From positions 267-64,266 of the forward strand of contig JAZDKY010000075.1 in the NCBI GenBank assembly GCA_043802525.1: 64,000 nucleotides of DNA, in the 5' to 3' direction. Shown piece after piece: positions 29,434-58,037 of this stretch. A program made the position numbers and the translations under genes. The stretch is from a bacterium (GTDB taxonomy: Bacteria > Verrucomicrobiota > Kiritimatiellia > CAIVKH01). How positions within the stretch are numbered: the first letter of the stretch is position 1; the number at the start of each line of letters is the position of its first letter. Below the pieces are notes generated by a model. That model saw nothing but the letters and a program-made list of their open reading frames with translations, had not been told where the DNA came from and did no database searches.

Positions 29434-29789
29434 CGGGATTGTGCTGGTCGGGACGGCTGGCCTCCTTTGACAGGCTCAGGGCAGGCAGCCCCGCCCTTCG
29501 CCGTAACGATGCACTTGGAGAACCGTGAATTTCCGCCCGAGGCGGATCCGTCTTCGGCCATGCGCATCAACCTGACGCAGAAGCAGTTCATCTGTGAATC
29601 TCCTGATCCGGGACGAGCCGGGTTTTGGAGTGCGGCGGCTTGCCGCCGCTTTGTAAGCGTGCGGCATGACGCACGCTGAAGGGGCGCCGCTACCCACCTC
29701 CGCCAATCCGCCGGAGGCGGACAGGGGCTTGCCCGCCAACTGGCCATGTGCATCAACCTAAGGCGTATCCATGCCGTTGCAATAGCCAC

Positions 29790-29975
29790 GAAGACGCACC
29801 CGCCTTCGTCCCGCCTCGGAGGCGGGACTTCGGCGAGGCAGGCAAGAGGCACAAAGAAAGAAAATTGCGAAGCGACGCCATCGAGAAAGATATTCACCGA
29901 TCAGCGATCCAAACCCGGCGCGCCTGATTATCGATCCGCGACTTCTTCTTGTGCCTTTTCGTGCCTCTTCGTGGC
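29790..29975. repeat. MITE-like palindromic element (CCACGAAGA..GCAC termini; core palindrome CGCCTTCGTCCCGCCTCGGAGGCGGGACTTCGGCG); a homologous copy lies at 54355-54490
   Basis: The two copies share about 85% identity over termini and core. Both are intergenic. Confidence 0.6.
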
Positions 29976-45471: not shown

Positions 45472-46590
45472 TTACGGCAGGAACTTCCCTTTCTTCAGTT
45501 TCTCGGGCAGGTAGTGGTCCAAAACGAAATTCAGGCCGTGTTTGGCGAAGGCCTGCTGCTCGATGCGGACGCCGAGCTTGAGCATATGCTCGAGGGCGTG
45601 CTGCCATTCCTTGTGGTGCCGGATGAAGGGGTCGTTCTTCAGCGCGTCCTTCGCGCGTTTGATGTCGGCTTCTTCGAGCGGGTGTGTCGCATCCTCGAGT
45701 TTGTAGTCCGCGATGTCCTGCGGTGTGACACCGAGGTAGTGGACCTGCGGCACGCAGAAGAACCGGTTGATGTGCGCGGCCTGGCCGGAGCCGACCTTCA
45801 GCGTGCGGTAGATGTTGCAGTAGCCGTACGGGTCGCCGTCGGTGAAGGCCAGCACCGGCACCTTCTGGTCGTCCGCCAGCCGGCGGATGAAACGCCTGCA
45901 CGCGCGGGTCGGCACACCGCTCATCGAAATGAGAATGCAATTTGCCTTCTCATAATATCGGTGATGGACGAGGCGCTGGAAGAGCGACGCGGTCTCGACG
46001 GTGAGGATGAGCTTGGCCTTCGTCTGGAACCGCAGGTGCTCGACCCGCGAGGGGATGCTCCACGCGCCCGTGCCGAGCTTCGTGCAGTCGATCTTGATGT
46101 CCTTGCCCGTGGCGGGATCGCGGTCGATGACGACAAGCGGCCCGCACACGTCGCCGCCGCGCTCCTCGGGAATGTAGCCGAGCTGCTCGCGGTTGATCCC
46201 GAGCATCGCCTCGATGTCGTCCAGCAGCGTGTCGCTCTCCGGCTGCTCGTTGAACCGGCACTCACCCCAGCTCTTGCTGTTGTAATAAATCTCGCGCTTC
46301 CCCGCGATGTCGTCCTTGTCGAGCAGGTCGTTCTTCGTCGTCGACAGGAGCCGCATCGACTGCGCGAACGTCTTGACCGTGTTGTACGAGAGCGTCCGCG
46401 TCGCGACCTTGTTGAGGATCTCGAAATGCCCGCGCTTCGTGTCGTACTTCACGTTCGCGAGCGAGCGGATCGGGAACCGCATCGACGGCTTCCGTTTCTT
46501 CTTGATGATGTCGGTGTGGATATCGCCCGCCACGTCGACGATCTTCCTGGACGCGGCCTGCTTGGAAATGACTTCGGGTGCTTCAGCCAT
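45472..46590 (-). CDS. top6A: DNA topoisomerase VI subunit A (Spo11/Top6A)
   Basis: Catalytic-Tyr region GKREIYYNSK. Toprim E in LILTVETASLFQRL. DxD in VLAFTDGDPYGYCNIY. RBS AGGAGT; start MAEAPEV. Confidence 0.8.
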   Translation of the reverse strand: MAEAPEVISKQAASRKIVDVAGDIHTDIIKKKRKPSMRFPIRSLANVKYDTKRGHFEILNKVATRTLSYNTVKTFAQSMRLLSTTKNDLLDKDDIAGKREIYYNSKSWGECRFNEQPESDTLLDDIEAMLGINREQLGYIPEERGGDVCGPLVVIDRDPATGKDIKIDCTKLGTGAWSIPSRVEHLRFQTKAKLILTVETASLFQRLVHHRYYEKANCILISMSGVPTRACRRFIRRLADDQKVPVLAFTDGDPYGYCNIYRTLKVGSGQAAHINRFFCVPQVHYLGVTPQDIADYKLEDATHPLEEADIKRAKDALKNDPFIRHHKEWQHALEHMLKLGVRIEQQAFAKHGLNFVLDHYLPEKLKKGKFLP

Positions 46591-46609
46591 GGTATTACTC
46601 CTGATTTTT

Positions 46610-46740
46610 GACCGCAGAGGACCCGCCTTCGCCAATGACTACGGCGAGGCAAGCGCAGAGGCGCGCGGAGGTTCGGAAGTTCTCGGAAAACCTCTGCGCA
46701 TCTCTGCGTCCTCTGCGGTTCAATTCTCCCCCATTCAACC
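46610..46740. repeat. MITE-like element with (CTCTGCG)n / CGCAGAGG inverted termini and core CCCGCCTTCGCCAATGACTACGGCGAGGCAAGC
   Basis: The core motif CCGCCTTCGCC..CTACGGCG..CAAGC recurs at 42725-42780 and 45262-45300. The right arm recurs at 57990-58030. Confidence 0.55.
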
Positions 46741-47543: not shown

Positions 47544-47870
47544 CTCTTAATCGTAATCTTAATCGTACTCGTAATCGTAATCATGATTAGCGCTCGTCGC
47601 CGGTCACATACGCAGCACCGTCCTCGTGCACCCGCCATGCCGAATTGCTCCTGATCAAGCCGGCCGGCATGGAAACAACGGCAAGGAGTCTTTATTCCCC
47701 TCGTGCAACGAGTTCAATGCAGGGGTTGTAGATATTCAGTTTCTCGTGGTCGAAGAGCTGTAGCATGAGGGGTGCTTCTGATGTGATTACGATTAGGATT
47801 AGGATTACGATTACGATTACGATTACGATTACGATTACGATTAGGATTGGGGCCGAGATTAGGATTATGA
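47541..47870. mobile_element. Hexanucleotide-repeat-armed element (left arm (CGTAAT/CTTAAT)n 47545-47585; right arm (GATTAC/GATTAG)n 47775-47862) enclosing a deleted four-helix-bundle gene remnant (47692-47769, minus strand, MLQLFDHEKLNIYNPCIELVARGE*)
   Basis: The arms are inverted tandem hexamers. The internal sequence CGTCCTCGTGCACCCGCCATGCCGAATTGCTCCTGATCAAGCC... aligns with the 55576-55650 junction of the intact copy. The remnant N-terminus aligns with MNSKPLFDHEKLEVYQLSIEF of the 55587-55982 gene. Confidence 0.6.
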
Positions 47871-50546: not shown

Positions 50547-50915
50547 ATGCGATCACCCATCAATGTTCTCTTCGTCTGCGGACGCAACAACCGGCGCAGT
50601 CCGACCGCCGGGAGGATCTTCAAGCGCGACCGTCGCATGAACATCCGCGCGGTCGGTTTGGGCGACACCAGCCCGCGGCGGGTGAAGGAAGCCGACCTGC
50701 GCTGGGCCCACCTCGTGCTCGTCGTGGAACGGAAGTACGCCGGCCGCCTTCGGACGGCCTTTCCAAACGTCGACCCGTTCCCGCCCATCGAATCCCTCGA
50801 CATCTCCGACGAGTACACCTTCATGCAGCCCGAACTGGTGGACCTCCTGAAATCCAGCGTGGCATCCGCGTTGGAGACCTATTACGAAGACCGGGTGGGC
50901 GATGGTTCTCCTTAG
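50547..50915 (+). CDS. Low-molecular-weight phosphotyrosine-phosphatase/ArsC-like small protein (CX5R(S) P-loop); paralog of 54657-55055
   Basis: VLFVCGRNNRRSPTAG is the LMW-PTP CX5R motif. Only about 120 aa long. Confidence 0.55.
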   Translation: MRSPINVLFVCGRNNRRSPTAGRIFKRDRRMNIRAVGLGDTSPRRVKEADLRWAHLVLVVERKYAGRLRTAFPNVDPFPPIESLDISDEYTFMQPELVDLLKSSVASALETYYEDRVGDGSP

Positions 50916-51204
50916 CCGGGCGTTCGTACCGGTCGGGCTCTGCGAACTGAAGTTGCAGGACCGTACGGCCCCCGGCGGTGGCCGGTTCGTTCGGAGCGGA
51001 AAGTTTTAGCCGCAAAAGAACGCAAAGAATCCGCCCCTTATTGCCCGTTATTTCTGAGGGCTATGGGGGTGGAGCCTCTTTGCGCTCCTTCGCGGCTCAA
51101 ATTCGTGACGATTCGTGTCCATTCGTGGTTTGCTTCTCCGTGTAAGGTTCCATCTTTCACTTCGAGTTCTTGACTCATAATAGTATGTCACGTATGTACA
51201 GATC

Positions 51205-51771
51205 ATGAACGTGATCCGGTCAGCCCGGGAACGGCGCGGCTATTCGCAACGGGAACTGGCGAAACGGGCTGGTGTTTCGTTCCGCTGCGTCCAGCAATTG
51301 GAACGTCCCGGGCACAACTGGAGCGTCTCGAGCCTGAAGCGTGTCGCCCGAGCCCTGGCCGTGCCCGCGGGAGGGTTGCGCTATCACTTGGACTATCCCT
51401 TTAGAATTCCGCCCGATTCGATCGAGGACATTTCGCTGCGCATCCATGGCGAGGAGTTTTCCTCGTGGAAGCTTCACGTGTTCAACTTCGTGGACCGTTT
51501 CCGGGCGACGCGTGACCCGGACCTGATCGCCAGGCCGCCCATGCCGGAACTGGACCCGCGCCTGCACGCCTTGTTGGCCGGCGTGGTGGAAACGCTCTGC
51601 GCGGAAATCGATCGGTCGGCGCCGTCCTGGTGCGCCGGGATAGATACACTTCCCGAGCCGTGGTTCGTCGCCGGTATTGAGAACCTGAAGCCCGCGGCGC
51701 TCGTTGAATCGCCGGTTCGTTTCAGGACGCGGAACATCTTCGTGCTGGGGAACTTCCTGGAGAGGGCATAG
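51205..51771 (+). CDS. XRE-family HTH protein with an uncharacterised C-terminal domain
   Basis: N-terminal RRGYSQRELAKRAGVSFRCVQQLE. The 130-aa C-terminal domain has no recognised motif. Confidence 0.6.
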   Translation: MNVIRSARERRGYSQRELAKRAGVSFRCVQQLERPGHNWSVSSLKRVARALAVPAGGLRYHLDYPFRIPPDSIEDISLRIHGEEFSSWKLHVFNFVDRFRATRDPDLIARPPMPELDPRLHALLAGVVETLCAEIDRSAPSWCAGIDTLPEPWFVAGIENLKPAALVESPVRFRTRNIFVLGNFLERA

Positions 51772-51778
51772 CGCCAAC

Positions 51779-52291
51779 ATGTTGGATAACGCGACCATCC
51801 AGAAACTCTTCGAAGCCCTGAACCGGGCGCTCAAGGCCCGGAAGGTCGTGGGTGAAATCGGTCTCTGCGGGGGCGCGGTCATGTGCGTGGTTTTTGAAGC
51901 CCGCGTGTCGACCAAGGACGTCGACGGCATTTTCGAACCCACGTCGGAGATTCGAAAAGCGAGCCGGGAAGTCGCCCGTGAGATGGGCGTTCCGCAGAAC
52001 TGGCTGAAGGACGTCGCGAAGGCCTATTTCCTGAGCGATCCGCCGCGGGTCCCGGTCATGGACCTCTCCAACCTGCGCATCTGGGCCCCGAGGGCCGACT
52101 ACATGCTGGCCATGAAATGCGTATCCGCCCGGTTTGACACGCACGATACCGACGACGTGAAGTTCCTGGTCCGTCATCTTGGACTGAAAAAACCGGGCGA
52201 CGTCTTCGAGATCGTGGAGAAGTACTATCCCCGGAAGCAGGTTCCGTCCAAGACCCAAATCCTGATCGAGGAAATCATGCAGAAAAGCTAG
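51779..52291 (+). CDS. Minimal nucleotidyltransferase (Pol-beta fold; MntA/AbiEii-like)
   Basis: GLCGGAVMCVVFEARVSTKDVDGIF fits hG[GS]x9-13DxD. 8 nt downstream of the XRE gene, so probably co-transcribed. Confidence 0.55.
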   Translation: MLDNATIQKLFEALNRALKARKVVGEIGLCGGAVMCVVFEARVSTKDVDGIFEPTSEIRKASREVAREMGVPQNWLKDVAKAYFLSDPPRVPVMDLSNLRIWAPRADYMLAMKCVSARFDTHDTDDVKFLVRHLGLKKPGDVFEIVEKYYPRKQVPSKTQILIEEIMQKS

Positions 52292-52451
52292 CCGCGAAAA
52301 ACACAAAAATAAACGCCCCATAACCCTCGGAATTTCGAAGGTGGGTCATGGGGGTGGGGGTTATGGTGTTTTTCGTGGCCATTCTGCGCTATTCCGCGCC
52401 GGCCCTTTCAAGCTCTCGTGTCCACTCATACGCGAACCAGGGCTGTTCGCG

Positions 52452-54290
52452 TCAGCGCAGTCGGCCGCGGGATACCCAGTCCTTGCGCGGGAAAGCGTGA
52501 AAGATCATGCGGCTATCCTCCTCGCGCACGAGGATGCGCGCTTTACCGCGCTTCAGCTTGCGCCAGTAGAAGCCGCTGATGGATTCGTGCGGCAGAAGAG
52601 CTCGCGTGACAGGTGACATGGACGCGTAGTAGTCGAGGGCGCTGGTCAGACTTTCGGCCGGAATCGGAAGGGTGGGGAGATGCTCGCGTATCCAGCTTGA
52701 CGTGTCAGTCCCGGGGCTATCGTCGTTCCACACAAGGATTTTCGCCTGTGCAAGGCCGTGTCCAGGGTCCCGCACCATGTGCCACACGCGTACCACGGGG
52801 GCGGCCGGTTCGGGGGGCAGGGGCGTCGCGTCGTCCTCCGCCAGATCGAGATGCTGCTCGATCGTCCTGGAGACCTCCGGCTCCGGCGGCAGGTGGAGAT
52901 CGAAAATCGACACGGTTTGGCCGGCGGCCTGTGTGCATCGGCAAAGAAAATCCAGATTCTCCAGCATGAAAGGTTCGGACCACTGCTTCCAAAGTTGGCG
53001 AATCAGCGCGCTCTGGTCGTCATTCAGCGGAACGAAGGGCGTATCCGGGCGCATGTTGGACAGCGATATTTCCTCGGCCACCATCCGAAGCACCTGCGCG
53101 TCCGGCGCGTTGTCCAGCGCGGCCTGGGTAAAAAGACGGCGGGTTCCGGCGTGATGGGGCCCGCGCAGATAGGGCGCGATGTGGCGTGACAGCGCCGTCC
53201 TCGTTTTCTCGCCCTCGCGCGTCACGGGCATGCGGATGAGCTTCGAGGGATGGTTGAGCATGTCGGCGAGGAGCGGTCGCACCCAGGGTTTGAGCCTGTC
53301 GCCTGAAATCCCGTCCGTCCGGGCGAGTTCCTGAAACAGAGCCACGTACCAGAAGCATTCGCTGGTGGAGATCATCCCCGCAGCTTCATCCGACATGTTG
53401 TCGGCAAGGGTGTACCGTTCCCTTTCTTTCCGGGCGAGACCTCTCAGTTGAGTGCACATGTTGGTGCGCATCTTCGCCAGGAGGAGGAATACGTGAAAGT
53501 CCATGGCTGTTTTCTTCGGATCCAGTGCCTGATCGAGCGTCTCGAACAGAAAAGTTTCCGTCATTTCCACGCGGTGGACGATCTGGTTGTAGCCTTCCGC
53601 GGCGTCGCGGAAGATCGGCATCAGCGTCTCCATGCGATGCCGGGCCTCGACGAGCAAGGCGTCCAGCGATTCGGCTGGATCCTCGACATCCAGGAGCAAA
53701 ACGGCCGCGTCATCGGAGAAGGGCAGGACCAGCAGCAGGATATCCCGCGGGGCGAGCGTGGGCGCGAAGTCCTCGGCGAGTTCCATGATAAAATCAGGAT
53801 TGCAGGCAAAAGCTGTCAACAGCGGGCTGTTGGCGGTCAGCGTCATACTGCGGCGGAACTGGTCCAGGCAAATCCGCTCCCTGTCCTTGTCGTCATCGAG
53901 CAGGGCGGAGATGGCGTCAATCGCATCAAAACCGAACCGGTCGATATGGTATTTGATTCCTCCGCACCAATGGAGAAAGTCGCGTAGGGCGTCCGACGAT
54001 GCGACGTCCCGGGCCCGTGCCAGGTCAAATACCTTGGCGACCGTTGAAAGCAGTGTCAGGTCCGATTCGGCATAGACCAGGTCATCGCCGGTCCCGAGCC
54101 ACTCGACCATGGCGGCGCGAAACCGGGTTTGGATTTTCAGCGACTTGGGCGACGCCAGCCAGGCTTGGAGGCGCCTCCGGCTCTCCGCGTAGCCGGCCAG
54201 TGCCCTGCTGACGTGTTCAGCCCCATACCGGGCCGACGAGAATGCCATTGGCCACGGCTGGATAAAAGTGGGTCGTGGTTTCTTGCTCAC
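52452..54290 (-). CDS. Hypothetical 612-aa cytoplasmic protein, no recognisable domain
   Basis: Long ORF with protein-like composition and no TM or signal peptide. No catalytic motif recognised by eye. Confidence 0.4.
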   Translation of the reverse strand: MSKKPRPTFIQPWPMAFSSARYGAEHVSRALAGYAESRRRLQAWLASPKSLKIQTRFRAAMVEWLGTGDDLVYAESDLTLLSTVAKVFDLARARDVASSDALRDFLHWCGGIKYHIDRFGFDAIDAISALLDDDKDRERICLDQFRRSMTLTANSPLLTAFACNPDFIMELAEDFAPTLAPRDILLLVLPFSDDAAVLLLDVEDPAESLDALLVEARHRMETLMPIFRDAAEGYNQIVHRVEMTETFLFETLDQALDPKKTAMDFHVFLLLAKMRTNMCTQLRGLARKERERYTLADNMSDEAAGMISTSECFWYVALFQELARTDGISGDRLKPWVRPLLADMLNHPSKLIRMPVTREGEKTRTALSRHIAPYLRGPHHAGTRRLFTQAALDNAPDAQVLRMVAEEISLSNMRPDTPFVPLNDDQSALIRQLWKQWSEPFMLENLDFLCRCTQAAGQTVSIFDLHLPPEPEVSRTIEQHLDLAEDDATPLPPEPAAPVVRVWHMVRDPGHGLAQAKILVWNDDSPGTDTSSWIREHLPTLPIPAESLTSALDYYASMSPVTRALLPHESISGFYWRKLKRGKARILVREEDSRMIFHAFPRKDWVSRGRLR

Positions 54291-54354: not shown

Positions 54355-54490
54355 AGGTCGGATGGTCACGAAGACGCACCGGCCTTCGCCCCGCCTCGGA
54401 GGCGGGACTTCGGTGAGGCAAGCAAGAGAAGGCCGCCCTTGGAACCCGGGGATCTCTTCTTCGTGCTTCTTGTGCCTCTTCGTGGCTATC
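54355..54490. repeat. MITE-like element, homolog of the 29790-29975 copy
   Basis: TCACGAAGACGCACCGGCCTTCGCCCCGCCTCGGAGGCGGGACTTCGGTGAGGCAAGCAAGAG...CTTCTTCGTGCTTCTTGTGCCTCTTCGTGGC. Confidence 0.6.
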
Positions 54491-54656
54491 TCTGTTGCTG
54501 CTTTACTGTTTCTTCCATTTGGACGGATATGAGGCAGGCTTGCCCTCATGAACCATCATCAATGTGCCACGTGCCCCGTCCCGCCTTGGCGGGCAAGTGT
54601 GACGCGGCTACAGGCAAACATTTAACGCCTTGGCGGGATCTGCTACGCTCCGGTTC

Positions 54657-55055
54657 ATGGCTGGTCCTCTCAACGTCCTCTTTGTCTGCGACAGCAAGAA
54701 ACGGCGCAGCCCCACCGCGGAGCGAATCTTCAAGCGGGACCGCCGGATGAACGTCCGCGCGGCGGGCGTTGGTGACAGCAGTTCGTGTCGCATGAAGGAA
54801 GGGGACCTGCGCTGGGCCCAGCTCGTGCTCGTGATGGAGCGGAAGTACGCCGGGCGACTTCGGGCGGCCTTTCCGAATCTCGATCCATTCCCGCCCATCG
54901 CATCCCTCGATATCCCCAATGACTACGCCTTCATGCAGGAAGAGCTGATCCAACTCCTGAGAGTCACCGTAACCGCTGCCTTGGCCGCCTATCACGCCGC
55001 TGAAGATTCAACCACGAATGGGACCCGCCTCCGTCCTGCTTCCGACGCGGGTTGA
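54657..55055 (+). CDS. LMW-PTP/ArsC-like small protein, paralog of 50547-50915
   Basis: LNVLFVCDSKKRRSPTAERIFKRDRRMNVRAAGVGD. About 70% identical to the first copy through the first 100 aa. Confidence 0.55.
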   Translation: MAGPLNVLFVCDSKKRRSPTAERIFKRDRRMNVRAAGVGDSSSCRMKEGDLRWAQLVLVMERKYAGRLRAAFPNLDPFPPIASLDIPNDYAFMQEELIQLLRVTVTAALAAYHAAEDSTTNGTRLRPASDAG

Positions 55056-55140: not shown

Positions 55141-55575
55141 GGATGTATGTCCTCCGCCTCGTAATCCTAATCCTAATCGTAATCGTAATCCTAATCGTAC
55201 TCGTAATCGAATATCCTCGTGCCGCCATGGCCGGTATCGGAGAGTGCAGAGCGGTTATGGCCCGGAGTTTCGATTTCGATTACGATTAGGATTACGATTA
55301 CGATTAGGAATCAGATGTAGACATGGGCCTTGTCGAGCATCCTCTTCAGAGTGCTGACGAGTCTTCGACTCGTCTTTGTCCTTCAGGTCGAGGGCGAGGT
55401 GGGGGGCTATGTCCTCCGCCTCGTAATCCTAATCCTAATCCTAATCGTAATCGTAATCCTAATCGTACTCGTAATCGAATGTCCTCGTGCAGCCATGGCC
55501 GGTATCGGAGAGTGCAGAGCGATTATGGCCCGGATTTTCGATTACGATTACGATTACGATTGGGATTACGATTGG
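55141..55575. repeat. Two tandem units of about 170 bp (55141-55310; 55421-55575), each hexamer inverted arms (CGTAAT/CCTAAT)n ... (GATTAC/GATTAG)n around a 65-bp core, separated by a degenerate copy of the topoisomerase VI-B 3' end (55316-55415)
   Basis: The units are over 90% identical. The core reads GAAT[AG]TCCTCGTGC[CA]GCCATGGCCGGTATCGGAGAGTGCAGAGCG. The 55316-55415 segment aligns with 56109-56215 (shared TCCTTCAGGTCGAG, TCGAGCAT; translates LDLKDKDE.. against LDLKEKDEDRIVKDLKKMLEKTHLEV). Confidence 0.7.
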
Positions 55576-55586
55576 GAGGGCAAGCC

Positions 55587-55982
55587 TCATCCCCACGTTG
55601 CGCTGTCTTCATGAACGCGCATGGGCGAATTGCTCTTGATCAAACCAACAAGCATGGAGACGATCCGCGCCAGCATGACCTTGCCCTCGACGATTGCATC
55701 TGCATCCACTTTCCTTTTCGCGACGAGAACGTCGAGACACGCCGCGCATTCCAACGCCGATCCTCGCGCTATATCGAAAAAGCGACACCGGTCGTTTTCA
55801 GTGTAGCGGCCATTGCCTTCAGCCGTGTTCAGCGGAATGGAGGTGGAAGCCCGATCAATATTGTCGCGCGCAGCAAGCGTACGCGGGACATCAGCTACGA
55901 TGGGTTCTAGCCAGGCGATGAATTCGATGGAGAGTTGGTAGACTTCGAGCTTTTCGTGGTCGAAGAGAGGTTTGGAATTCAT
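55587..55982 (-). CDS. Four-helix-bundle protein (TIGR02436 / 23S rRNA intervening-sequence protein family)
   Basis: 131 aa. FDHEKLEVYQLSIEF...IPLNTAEGNGRYTENDRCRFFDIARGSALECAACLDVLV is the family signature. Confidence 0.75.
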   Translation of the reverse strand: MNSKPLFDHEKLEVYQLSIEFIAWLEPIVADVPRTLAARDNIDRASTSIPLNTAEGNGRYTENDRCRFFDIARGSALECAACLDVLVAKRKVDADAIVEGKVMLARIVSMLVGLIKSNSPMRVHEDSATWG

Positions 55983-56059: not shown

Positions 56060-56106
56060 TATACTTCTGATATTCGATTACGATTACGATTACGATTACG
56101 ATTACG
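56060..56106. repeat. (ATTCGATTACGATTACG...)n hexamer array, right arm of the element, abutting the top6B stop codon
   Basis: ATTCGATTACGATTACGATTACGATTACGATTACGAATCAG. Confidence 0.7.
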
Positions 56107-56108
56107 AA

Positions 56109-57875
56109 TCAGACTTCCAGATGCGTTTTCTCGAGCATTTTCTTGAGGTCTTTGACGATCCGATCTTCATCCTTTTCCTTCAGGTCGAGAATCTGCCTCA
56201 ATCCCAACGCAAGGTGCGGGATGTAGAGCTCGATGTAGTTCTTCTTCCTCGCTTCCTCCAACTCGCGGTTGCGTTTGTGGAGGAAGACGGACAATCGCCG
56301 ACCGCATTCCTGCAGGCCTAGTGTGATCTCATTGAGGATTTCCTGGTAGCTGGCGAGGGCGTCCTTGCTCTCGCTTGTGAACGGGACCCAGACGCTGGCC
56401 ATGTGGATCATCAATACGACCGGGCCTTGCGGCAGCCCGTCTCTGGGCTGGTTCAGGCCGTACGATTTCCAGTTTACGCCGCACGTCGCTTTCGTGATCG
56501 CGCAGGCGCCGGGCTGGTAGAGCAGAGGAACCCGGTTCGCAAATCGCAGCAGCCGCACGGGCTCTTCCTTGCCCATGTCCTGGTCGGTATTTTCCGAGGG
56601 TCGCGTGTACGCGACGCCGATCTCGATCTGAAACGGGTTGCCGCGGTAGACCGACGGGTCGCGCGTGAGGGACGTGAAAAAGTCGGCTTTGAATTCTTTC
56701 TGCAATCCCGCAAGAATCTGTGTCTCGCCAATCGGCGACAAACAGTCCGTTGGTGGCCGCATCAACTTCGTTTCCTGGATCGCCTTGTACAAGGCCTCGG
56801 CTTCCTGGTGCGCGACGCGGGTCGGGTTCGCTTTCGGGTTCAGGCCGGCGCGTTCGCAGATCTGCAGCGCGGTGCCGGTACTGACGCGGGAGAAGTCGGT
56901 CGACAACGCCCCGCGCAACGTGCGCGATTCGGAGTCCTTCAACATCTGCATCAGCATCCCGATCTCCACGCCGTGCGGATGCGGCATGATCTCCTGCGCC
57001 GGCAGCGGGACCTGTTTGGTGGCACGGAGGTAGGTGATGCGGAGTTCTGCTTTTGCTGGTTTTTCATCCGATGTAGGCCGCGTGACCCCACGCGGCGCGG
57101 ACCCCGCCGGGTCGGCGACCCGGCCTACAACGAGACGGTAGTGCAGCGTCACATGCGGGTTCACGATCGCGCACTGCTTCACGAATTCGTCGACGGACTG
57201 CTTGCCCCGCTGGTACGCGGCTTCCATGTCGATCGAGACACACGTGCCGTGCTTGTACGTGGAGGCTTCCCCGTCCGATTTCCCTTCCGCGTTCACGGCT
57301 TGGAACGTCGGCAGCCACTCGGCTTCCTCGTCGGTCAGGATGGTAGGCTTATTCTGGCGCGTATCGATCTGCACGGCCATGGAATGCGCCTTCTTGCTGC
57401 CCGAAATCTTCGACAGGATGCGCGTCGACGAACCGGTCGTGAGCTGGCCGTACATGCCCGCTGCGCTGATGCCGATGCCCTGCTGGCCGCGCGACATGCG
57501 GAGGCGGTGGAATTTCGAGCCGTAGAGCAGCTTCGCGAAAATCTTCGGGATCTGGCTCTTCACGATGCCGGGCCCGTTGTCGGTGATCGTCACGCGGAAC
57601 CGGCTCTCGGAAATCTGTTCCAGGTCGATGGAAAGTTCGGGGAGGATGTGGGCCTCCTCGCATGCGTCGAGCGAGTTGTCGACCGCCTCCTTGACCGCGG
57701 TCAGCAGCGCGCGGCGCGGGCTGTCGAACCCGAGCAGGTGCCGGTTCTTGAGGAAGAATTCCGAGACCGATATGTCGCGCTGCCGCGCGCCCATGCTCTC
57801 GGCGGTCTCGACCTTCGGTTCCTTCTTCGGCTTCGGTGCCGGGGCTGGAGGGGACGGTGTGGGCGCTTTCTTCAT
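56109..57875 (-). CDS. top6B: DNA topoisomerase VI subunit B (GHKL ATPase)
   Basis: Bergerat-fold motifs EAVDNSLDA (N box), ITDNGPGI (G1), KLLYGSKF, SRGQQGIGISAA (G2), followed by H2TH and transducer regions. Start MKKAPTPSPP. Confidence 0.85.
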   Translation of the reverse strand: MKKAPTPSPPAPAPKPKKEPKVETAESMGARQRDISVSEFFLKNRHLLGFDSPRRALLTAVKEAVDNSLDACEEAHILPELSIDLEQISESRFRVTITDNGPGIVKSQIPKIFAKLLYGSKFHRLRMSRGQQGIGISAAGMYGQLTTGSSTRILSKISGSKKAHSMAVQIDTRQNKPTILTDEEAEWLPTFQAVNAEGKSDGEASTYKHGTCVSIDMEAAYQRGKQSVDEFVKQCAIVNPHVTLHYRLVVGRVADPAGSAPRGVTRPTSDEKPAKAELRITYLRATKQVPLPAQEIMPHPHGVEIGMLMQMLKDSESRTLRGALSTDFSRVSTGTALQICERAGLNPKANPTRVAHQEAEALYKAIQETKLMRPPTDCLSPIGETQILAGLQKEFKADFFTSLTRDPSVYRGNPFQIEIGVAYTRPSENTDQDMGKEEPVRLLRFANRVPLLYQPGACAITKATCGVNWKSYGLNQPRDGLPQGPVVLMIHMASVWVPFTSESKDALASYQEILNEITLGLQECGRRLSVFLHKRNRELEEARKKNYIELYIPHLALGLRQILDLKEKDEDRIVKDLKKMLEKTHLEV

Positions 57876-58037
57876 AGGGGCACAGCGTAGTTTCCAACGA
57901 TTGGAAAAATCACGAAGAAAAGTTCCAAGCGTTGGAAGAAATTGAACCACGGAGGGAAGAGGAGGTTCTGGAGACCGGGCTCGCCATTCCCCAACCTCCG
58001 CGAACCTCTGCGCCCTCTGCGGTTCAAATTGATGCGG

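Follow-up and report, generated by a model that had tools for sequence, protein, structure and literature searches.

What does a small putative nucleotidyltransferase (NTase) do when its gene lies directly behind that of a DNA-binding protein? The question is raised by positions 51,205 to 52,291 of a 64,000-nucleotide stretch of contig JAZDKY010000075.1 (positions 267 to 64,266, forward strand; assembly GCA_043802525.1), here called the window, from a bacterium of the Kiritimatiellia (Verrucomicrobiota; CAIVKH01). Two genes, here named A and B, encode a helix-turn-helix (HTH) protein and the putative NTase, respectively. An original prediction, made from the letters of the window, labelled the pair toxin-antitoxin (TA) or abortive-infection (Abi)-like. 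We consider it probable that the pair is a TA module, with B as an NTase toxin and A as autorepressor and neutralizing partner. This reading is favoured because the gene order is strict, the gaps are tight, A and B co-evolve and an operator-like palindrome overlaps the promoter; because the DNA-binding domain of A is swapped for bona fide antitoxin domains in relatives; and because plasmid relatives adjoin genes for RES-Xre, VapC and ParDE. The same observations lend support to the TA half of the original label, but not to its Abi half.

The gene pair and its two proteins

Gene A runs from the ATG at 51205 to the TAG at 51769–51771 (plus strand) and encodes 188 amino acids (aa); gene B runs from the ATG at 51779 to the TAG at 52289–52291 (plus strand) and encodes 170 aa. 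With both open reading frames (ORFs) on the plus strand, the two-gene cassette proposed earlier stands, but not its 8-nucleotide (nt) spacer: read from the sequence, the spacer is 7 nt long (CGCCAAC, 51772–51778, plus strand). A Shine-Dalgarno-like sequence, GGAGAGGG, is found at 51759–51766 (plus strand), inside the 3′ end of gene A, and the short gap is consistent with a single operon in which translation of the two genes may be coupled. The mechanical ORF of B opens earlier, with a TTG at 51704; in all 40 aligned homologues of B, the start falls on the M-L-D/N position equivalent to 51779.

In a scan of one genome per species, relatives of B were detected in 131 of 185,579 species-representative genomes, and the best 80 of these 131 loci were compared. 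In 79 of the 80 loci, the gene immediately before B codes for an A homologue and has the same orientation; since the pair is kept in this way and its members have hundreds of homologues, the arrangement goes beyond chance. The distance between the stop codon of A and the start codon of B is 2–3 nt in 53 of the 79 pairs and lies between −2 and +9 nt in 72 of them. Two ORFs on the opposite strand, 51220–51942 (−) and 51722–52321 (−), are taken to be side effects of coding sequence rich in G+C, since it is the plus-strand frames that are conserved in the 80 loci. The locus L075 is a decayed copy of the module that lacks A, and its B can be matched from residue 25 onward only.

Residues 4–55 of A (nt 51214–51369) match Pfam HTH_3 (PF01381) with an E-value of 7e-9, above the gathering score. 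The remainder, residues ~60–188 (nt 51382–51768, plus strand), forms a family-specific helical domain of ~130 aa, the C-domain, for which no Pfam, NCBIfam or PADLOC family was found, either with the window protein or with 40 family members. The description of A as an HTH protein with an unknown C-terminal domain is thereby borne out, as none of these libraries has a family for the C-domain. An AF2 model of A (pLDDT 88) also shows the C-domain as helical; Foldseek matches of this model in PDB and BFVD were confined to the HTH part, with C.BclI, C.Esp1396I, SinR and HipB as the best PDB matches, and none covered the C-domain. We found 394 homologues of A, nearly all of 187–188 aa, with a near-invariant C-terminal tail (PWFVAGIENLK..LVESP..FR.RN.FVL.NFL.RA). 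Residues that are invariant in an alignment of 40 sequences include R79, W88, D97, R100, W142 and P152-W-F-V155, and, further along, E159, E168, S169, R174, R176, N183 and R187.

B carries the motif L29-C30-G31-G32, followed after 14 residues by D47-V48-D49. The original prediction of a 170-aa NTase with GG-x13-DVD was right on the length and on the GG and DVD residues but not on the spacing, which is x14, one residue over the canonical x9-13 range and below the 15 of AbiEii. Among 40 sequences of the B family, G31, G32, D47 and D49 are all invariant, as are G25, E26, C30, R42 and T45 and, in the second half of the protein, K113, A117, R118, F119, D120, D123 and D126; K46 is near-invariant (Lys in 39 sequences, Arg in one). 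On the plus strand of the window, G31-G32 is encoded at 51869–51874, T45-K46-D47-V48-D49 at 51911–51925, and K113 to D126 at 52115–52156.

The family of B leads to Pfam DUF6036 (PF19502), which, like DUF2204, stands for nucleotidyltransferases of unknown function. DUF6036 is matched by 37 of the 40 B-family members, with a best E-value of 3.6e-6. In a tblastn comparison, 97% of B aligned at 37.7% identity (E 4e-28) with WP_083533504.1, a Mycobacterium plasmid protein; this protein, a ‘DUF6036 family nucleotidyltransferase’ according to PGAP, passes the PF19502 threshold with 29.1 bits. Homologues of B that PGAP names DUF6036 were found on 32 actinobacterial and Brevibacillus plasmids. Judged by this transitive homology, B belongs to the DUF6036-type minimal nucleotidyltransferases, its family being a divergent branch. 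Homologues of B number 801 at E ≤ 1e-3, and when 1.84 billion representative proteins were searched with a profile, 4338 relatives emerged, each the representative of a 50%-identity cluster. NCBIfam, PADLOC and PHROGs gave no match to B, and sequence and profile searches of PDB sequences with B returned nothing relevant. The NTase fold predicted for B is supported by the sequence pattern and these family links, not by structure. Two further DUF6036 proteins have composite architectures: in P0244 (585 aa) the domain is tandemly duplicated within one chain, and in P0275 (424 aa) it is fused to an AbiEii-type NTase, the N-terminal part of the protein matching PF08843 with an E-value of 2.3e-7. 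A search through the full text of 8 million papers turned up neither a mention of DUF6036 nor a description of a comparable XRE-NTase toxin pair.

Spread, promoter and domain build of the pair

The two-gene unit is spread over at least ten bacterial phyla. Its loci are found in Planctomycetota, Verrucomicrobiota, Kiritimatiellia, Lentisphaerae and Elusimicrobiota, and also in Deltaproteobacteria/Myxococcales, Acidobacteriota, Latescibacterota and Armatimonadota. The hundreds of homologues of A and of B show 45–80% identity, and the two lists have contigs in common. Compared with the window copy, B is 60.9% identical (standard deviation 2.5) and A 50.5% (standard deviation 4.3), with a flat course from phylum to phylum, and one metagenome-assembled genome (MAG) has two copies of the module (L017 and L027). 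The pairwise identities of A and B are correlated (r = 0.77; shuffled maximum 0.10). The mean pairwise identity is 63.6% for B versus 49.4% for A; conservation of B beyond that of A would be the usual pattern of a toxin and its antitoxin.

The surroundings of the pair are unrelated between loci. The 283 neighbouring ORFs fall into 251 clusters, and the 134 immediate neighbours represent 97 Pfam families, none of which occurs more than four times. A housekeeping NTase in a conserved non-TA context, which the original prediction had named as the finding that would contradict it, is thus absent, and we rejected a housekeeping role with a conserved context since the flanking genes differ from locus to locus. 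We read the pair as an autonomous module of two genes that spreads horizontally.

Upstream of gene A, we identified a −35 box TTGACT (51170–51175, plus strand) and, 17 nt past it, a −10 box TATGTA (51193–51198, plus strand), with 6 nt between the −10 box and the ATG. This promoter was missed by a consensus scan because its −10 box is without the final T. The −35 box is overlapped by a 20-bp operator-like palindrome, TGACTCATAATAGTATGTCA (51171–51190, plus strand). When the 90-nt regions preceding A in 65 related loci were aligned, the consensus was TTGACnTAnTATAnTAnGTCA, then TAtnnT, that is, TTGACn, a 17-nt spacer, TAtnnT and a start codon 6–7 nt on; the distance from TTGAC to the start codon is 35–36 nt in 55 of the 65 loci. 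Since neither a leader nor a Shine-Dalgarno sequence would fit into this layout, the operon transcript is probably leaderless.

The palindrome of the family, TGACnTAnTATAnTAnGTCA, is likewise 20 bp long, with the −35 hexamer forming its left end. At least seven of its ten positions form complementary pairs in 55 of the 65 loci; among 3250 control 20-mers, 13 reached seven pairs and none went above. The half-site pair 6/17 covaries, being A-T in 22 loci, G-C in 14 and T-A in eight, and the operator of L006 is a perfect palindrome, TTGACATATTATAATATGTCAA. Such covarying half-sites are, as far as an alignment can tell, what is seen when the site of a dimeric repressor and its protein have diverged together, and the HTH of A is the obvious candidate for binding this site. 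Between the window and its closest relative, L081, the block TTGACT..ATAGTATGTCACGTAT is conserved and the flanks are not; the right half-site and the spacing are kept. XRE antitoxins (HipB, HigA, MqsA-like proteins and the Xre of Xre-RES) and the C-proteins of restriction-modification systems have the same N-terminal fold as A and bind palindromic operators overlapping their own promoters, as is predicted here for A. They differ from A in the rest of the protein: the C-domain of A is unrelated to the Xre/MbcA/ParS toxin-binding domain, and the cognate partner of A is an NTase, while those of the XRE antitoxins are a kinase, an RNase or a RES enzyme.

At the other end of the operon, a long hairpin (52291–52379) lies between gene B and a convergent ORF of 612 aa on the minus strand. 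Its stem has an A-run on the 5′ side and a U-run on the 3′ side, and its fold energy is −43.2 kcal/mol versus a shuffle mean of −26.9 (z −4.65; none of 200 shuffles as good). The hairpin may serve as a bidirectional intrinsic terminator; it was missed by a simple terminator scan because the structure is longer than the model of that scan.

The N-terminal part of A is exchanged in relatives. The protein P0270 has, in one chain, an N-terminal ribbon-helix-helix (RHH) domain, the C-domain of A (hhalign E 4.7e-7) and then the NTase; its RHH domain scores 38.3 bits as NikA-like and 31.3 bits against the TacA1 antitoxin, both above threshold, with ParD weaker. P0303 and P0326, judged by eye from their sequences, resemble P0270 in architecture, and P0279 has the reversed order, with the NTase first and the C-domain at the C-terminus (hhalign probability 97.5%, E 7e-12). 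A C-domain/NTase fusion is also encoded on a mycobacterial plasmid (L083), as a 359-aa ‘DUF6036’ protein adjoining ParDE. Mycobacterial plasmids also have the two parts as separate genes (L082): a 114-aa protein consisting of the C-domain only is encoded 2 nt upstream of a DUF6036 gene, and the two sit among RES-Xre, PIN (VapC) and integrase genes; the same arrangement of a 114-aa protein and a DUF6036 gene occurs in Pseudomonadota MAGs (L089 and L090). In P0432, recovered with the C-domain, a MazE/AbrB domain (43.7 bits) replaces the HTH. This A-like protein (L088:20-607, JGI 3300022665) is an orphan without an NTase, adjoins a ParE gene and may be a stand-alone anti-addiction antitoxin.

The C-domain thus occurs with XRE, RHH or AbrB/MazE domains or with no DNA-binding domain at all. 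To judge from these architectures, interchangeable DNA-binding domains of this kind are the classic modular build of antitoxins, and the occurrence of both fusion orders speaks for direct contact of the C-domain with the NTase. In five decayed loci (L029, L057, L062, L071 and L079), the HTH of A has been lost; four of them keep the C-terminal tail of A beside an intact B; in L071, the match stops at residue 134. In L029, the remnant of A is in frame with a helicase-like ORF.

Small members of the Pol-beta superfamily include antibiotic-modifying and signalling enzymes, and an operon of an autoregulated repressor and an enzyme is a common non-toxic design. The pair could on these grounds be a benign one, either an XRE repressor tuned by the NTase or a small-molecule NTase, for resistance or a nucleotide signal, under a dedicated repressor or regulatory subunit. 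The many copies among housekeeping genes would suit such a pair, and the single-chain fusions on plasmids are easier to square with a harmless enzyme that carries a regulatory domain. We nevertheless regard this alternative as unlikely. There is no second target operon or conserved neighbour for the repressor to act upon, and no NCBIfam match links B to a resistance or signalling NTase. The C-domain persists without a DNA-binding domain or with three unrelated types of it, two of them typical of antitoxins. Patchy occurrence among phyla at a flat identity of ~60%, with multiple copies per genome, fits a selfish element, as do the TA-rich neighbourhoods on plasmids.

Kinship with known systems and polarity of the pair

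AbiEii proteins (DUF1814) have motifs I and II of the form hG[G/S]x9-13DhD, with x = 15 in AbiEii and an Arg in motif II; motif III consists of a Lys in a hydrophobic setting and an Arg, motif IV is +DxxD, and mutation of each of these motifs abolished toxicity (Dy et al. 2014, PMC3985639). In B, putative equivalents of the four motifs follow one another in this order: G31G32, R42..D47-x-D49, K113..R118 and D120-x-x-D123-x-x-D126. In the MenT toxins, the antitoxin switches the toxin off through a Ser or Thr that accepts phosphate and is located two positions ahead of the first catalytic Asp (T39-R40-D41 in MenT1, S78-K79-D80 in MenT3, S67..D69 in MenT4; PMC11375011, PMC7450476), and a 2026 preprint gives the same mechanism for AbiEii. 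This position is occupied in B by T45-K46-D47.

The likeness to AbiE and MenAT extends to the operon. All are bicistronic, and the gene for the DNA-binding partner precedes that for the NTase; the partner combines an N-terminal DNA-binding domain with a C-terminal neutralizing domain, the latter being predicted for A; and autoregulation through inverted repeats in the promoter, known for AbiEi (PMC3985639), is expected for A as well. B appears to share with AbiEii and MenT the ordered set of GG, Arg, DxD, Lys/Arg and DxxD, and it has the Ser/Thr at the acceptor position. The differences are equally clear. B has 170 aa versus roughly 240–300 aa in AbiEii; the distance from DxD to the Lys of motif III is 66 residues in B versus 96–109 in MenT1, MenT3 and MenT4; and the spacing of motif III in B departs from KLxAaxxR. 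A has an XRE HTH in place of the COG5340 winged helix of AbiEi, its C-domain matches no AbiEi family, and, in a further departure from AbiE, the A-B pair has one 20-bp palindrome, lying across the −35 box, as its putative operator. Since the tests for an AbiEii profile and for an AbiEi partner both fail, the pair, to judge by its profile matches, resembles AbiE and MenAT in logic but is not a member of either. AbiE itself was described as type IV, and a 2026 preprint moves it to type VII.

In MntA-HepT (MNT/HEPN, type VII), two genes also include a minimal Pol-beta-type NTase of similar size. There, the NTase is the upstream antitoxin and AMPylates a HEPN RNase toxin with an Rx4-6H motif, whereas here the NTase gene is downstream, A has a DNA-binding domain and no Rx4-6H, and B has additional residues resembling motifs III and IV. 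The pair is not an MNT-HEPN system.

The polarity of MntA-HepT could still apply, with B as an antitoxin NTase that modifies (for example, AMPylates) an effector formed by the C-domain of A, the HTH serving for autoregulation only. We regard this as quite unlikely. A HEPN-like Rx4-6H motif, for which a search of the C-domain had been suggested, was sought with a regular expression over the alignment and occurs in at most two of 40 A sequences at any position; the conserved R79 and H91 are 11 residues apart. We rejected a HEPN identity for the C-domain, which has neither a conserved Rx4-6H nor a HEPN Pfam match, and no AbiEi family matched the 40 members at E ≤ 1, in agreement with the earlier statement that the partner is neither a HEPN protein nor a canonical AbiEi. 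Other toxin families gave no match to A either, and no HEPN protein is among its top 50 Foldseek matches. The invariant polar residues of the C-domain (R79, H91, D97, R100, E159, E168, S169, R174 and R176) could all the same form an active site, and the retention of C-domain and NTase in decayed loci and fusions fits both polarities equally. The most abundant NTase-containing TA family has the NTase as a partner-modifying antitoxin (PMC7641770). Against this stand the DNA-binding domain of A and its upstream place, which is the usual position of an antitoxin, the higher conservation of B, and the presence in B of apparent motifs III and IV of the AbiEii/MenT toxin type rather than a bare MNT core. 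In addition, the A-like MazE protein of L088, which exists without an NTase, suggests that the C-domain alone is tolerated.

A primary role in abortive infection or phage defence, in which the module would do nothing until a signal from a phage released or switched on the NTase, as in AbiE, appears very improbable. In its favour, the system nearest in function, AbiE, combines TA activity with phage defence (PMC3985639); a gene for an AAA_21 ATPase adjoins the pair in the closest relative, L081, and a few of the neighbours encode AAA_21 or DUF4143 ATPases. Those neighbours are not enriched for defence genes, however; PADLOC gave no match, PHROGs gave none for B and HTH matches only for A, and no homologue of B was detected in 50,697 phage records. 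On the last two grounds, as regards B, we also rejected a phage origin of the module. A defence role is, besides, compatible with the TA module favoured here and not exclusive of it.

The absence of PADLOC matches and of phage homologues counts against the TA reading too, as do several other results. B of the window scores only 13.5 bits against DUF6036 (E 0.065), under the gathering score of 23.6. Its AF2 model is moderate (pLDDT 72), with low confidence for residues 33–53, the catalytic segment, and Foldseek found no significant match to it in PDB, the model being weak in the catalytic core. An hhalign comparison of B with an AbiEii/AbiGii set of four proteins, taken from plasmids and a fusion protein (PGAP annotates three, and a Pfam match identifies the fourth), aligned the four motifs colinearly over 129 columns, but with a weak score (E 5.9e-4, probability 29%). 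PF08843 (AbiEii, DUF1814) matched none of 40 B members at E ≤ 1; P0270 has a sub-threshold match to it in the region of motifs III and IV (E 0.0021; 18.5 bits versus a cut-off of 22.5). As far as such profiles can tell, B is outside DUF1814. The palindrome of the window is itself weak, with six of ten pairs, and the immediate neighbours of the pair at the compared loci are mostly ordinary metabolic and housekeeping genes, not defence islands. Single-chain fusions, such as those of A and B, are unusual for classical type II systems.

Surroundings, proposed mechanism and meaning

In the window, the pair is located between the genes for topoisomerase VI subunit A (45472–46635, minus strand) and subunit B (56109–57950, minus strand), both with strong Pfam matches. 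These genes are ~9.5 kb apart and have unrelated genes between them, which encode a methyltransferase, a β-carbonic anhydrase, a secreted protein, PPK2, two proteins resembling low-molecular-weight (LMW) phosphatases, the A-B pair, the 612-aa ORF and a 23S rRNA-intervening-sequence protein. The stretch looks like a variable island inserted between usually adjacent genes. In L081, the pair is ~2.2 kb from the topoisomerase VI B gene, with the AAA_21 ATPase gene between them.

The two LMW-phosphatase-like paralogues (50547–50915 and 54630–55055, plus strand) bracket the pair and the 612-aa ORF and are 77% identical at the nucleotide level (50560–50886 versus 54670–54996). Only the second copy has a match to LMW phosphotyrosine phosphatase, which is weak and below threshold (Pfam E 0.003), and L081 has one copy, with 71% aa identity. 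We rejected these genes as a part of the module, as they are shared only with L081 and absent from the other 80 loci. The convergent 612-aa ORF (52452–54290, minus strand) has no Pfam, NCBIfam, PADLOC or PHROGs match and was likewise rejected as a part of the module, for neither L081 nor any of the 80 related loci has an equivalent of it.

The intergenic regions contain arrays of the hexamer GATTAC / CGATTA / TAATCG, with up to 10.7 copies and on both strands (47545–47582, 47785–47848, 55159–55209, 55271–55309, 55424–55477, 55539–55577 and 56075–56107). The arrays translate as ITITIT or IVIVIV runs in spurious ORFs and are embedded in a 170-bp direct repeat (55146–55309 versus 55408–55577, 91% identity). 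A different repeat, of 62 bp, occurs at 54367–54428 and, ~24.5 kb away, at 29787–29848 (93.5% identity). The 23S rRNA-intervening-sequence protein, a four-helix bundle, is encoded at 55587–55982 (minus strand; Pfam E 7e-18). Near 47692–47760 (minus strand), at the end of a long spurious ORF, the stretch ..LFDHEKLNIYNPCIELV.. resembles the N-terminus of a second protein of this kind.

As a TA module, the pair could work as follows. Free B would transfer nucleotides onto an essential RNA, possibly the 3′ ends of tRNA by analogy with MenT, and growth would stop. A dimer of A would bind, through its XRE HTH, the 20-bp palindrome over the −35 box and spacer of its own operon promoter, and its C-domain would contact the NTase directly and hold B inactive. 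Neutralization could be achieved by occlusion of the active site or, alternatively, by provoking auto-phosphorylation of T45 in B, as in MenA-MenT and AbiEi-AbiEii. In a more specific version, which we offer as a rather doubtful conjecture, the DUF6036 branch to which B is assigned would be a ‘mini-MenT’ and the new partner domain would neutralize it via its near-invariant tail, which would trigger the auto-phosphorylation of T45. In a more radical variant, the NTase would nucleotidylylate the C-domain of A, and the pair would be a self-contained covalent transcription switch and not a toxin.

If B is toxic and A neutralizes it, the pair would represent a new and widespread TA family, and a function would be available both for DUF6036 and for an antitoxin domain that has so far lacked annotation. 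A ‘mini-MenT’ of 170 aa would be among the smallest NTase toxins so far. Control through T45, if it is real, would mean that auto-phosphorylation induced by an antitoxin is not confined to DUF1814 but also occurs in a second NTase family, unrelated to it in sequence and present in at least ten phyla, and the pair would offer a test of how general the Ser/Thr phosphorylation control of MenT and AbiEii is among NTase toxins. The promoters of the family, with their covarying half-sites, form a natural series of operator-repressor specificities that could be used to study or engineer the specificity of XRE proteins. The family is mostly found in poorly studied phyla, namely the Planctomycetota-Verrucomicrobiota-Lentisphaerae group, Elusimicrobiota and Acidobacteriota, and has relatives on mycobacterial plasmids.

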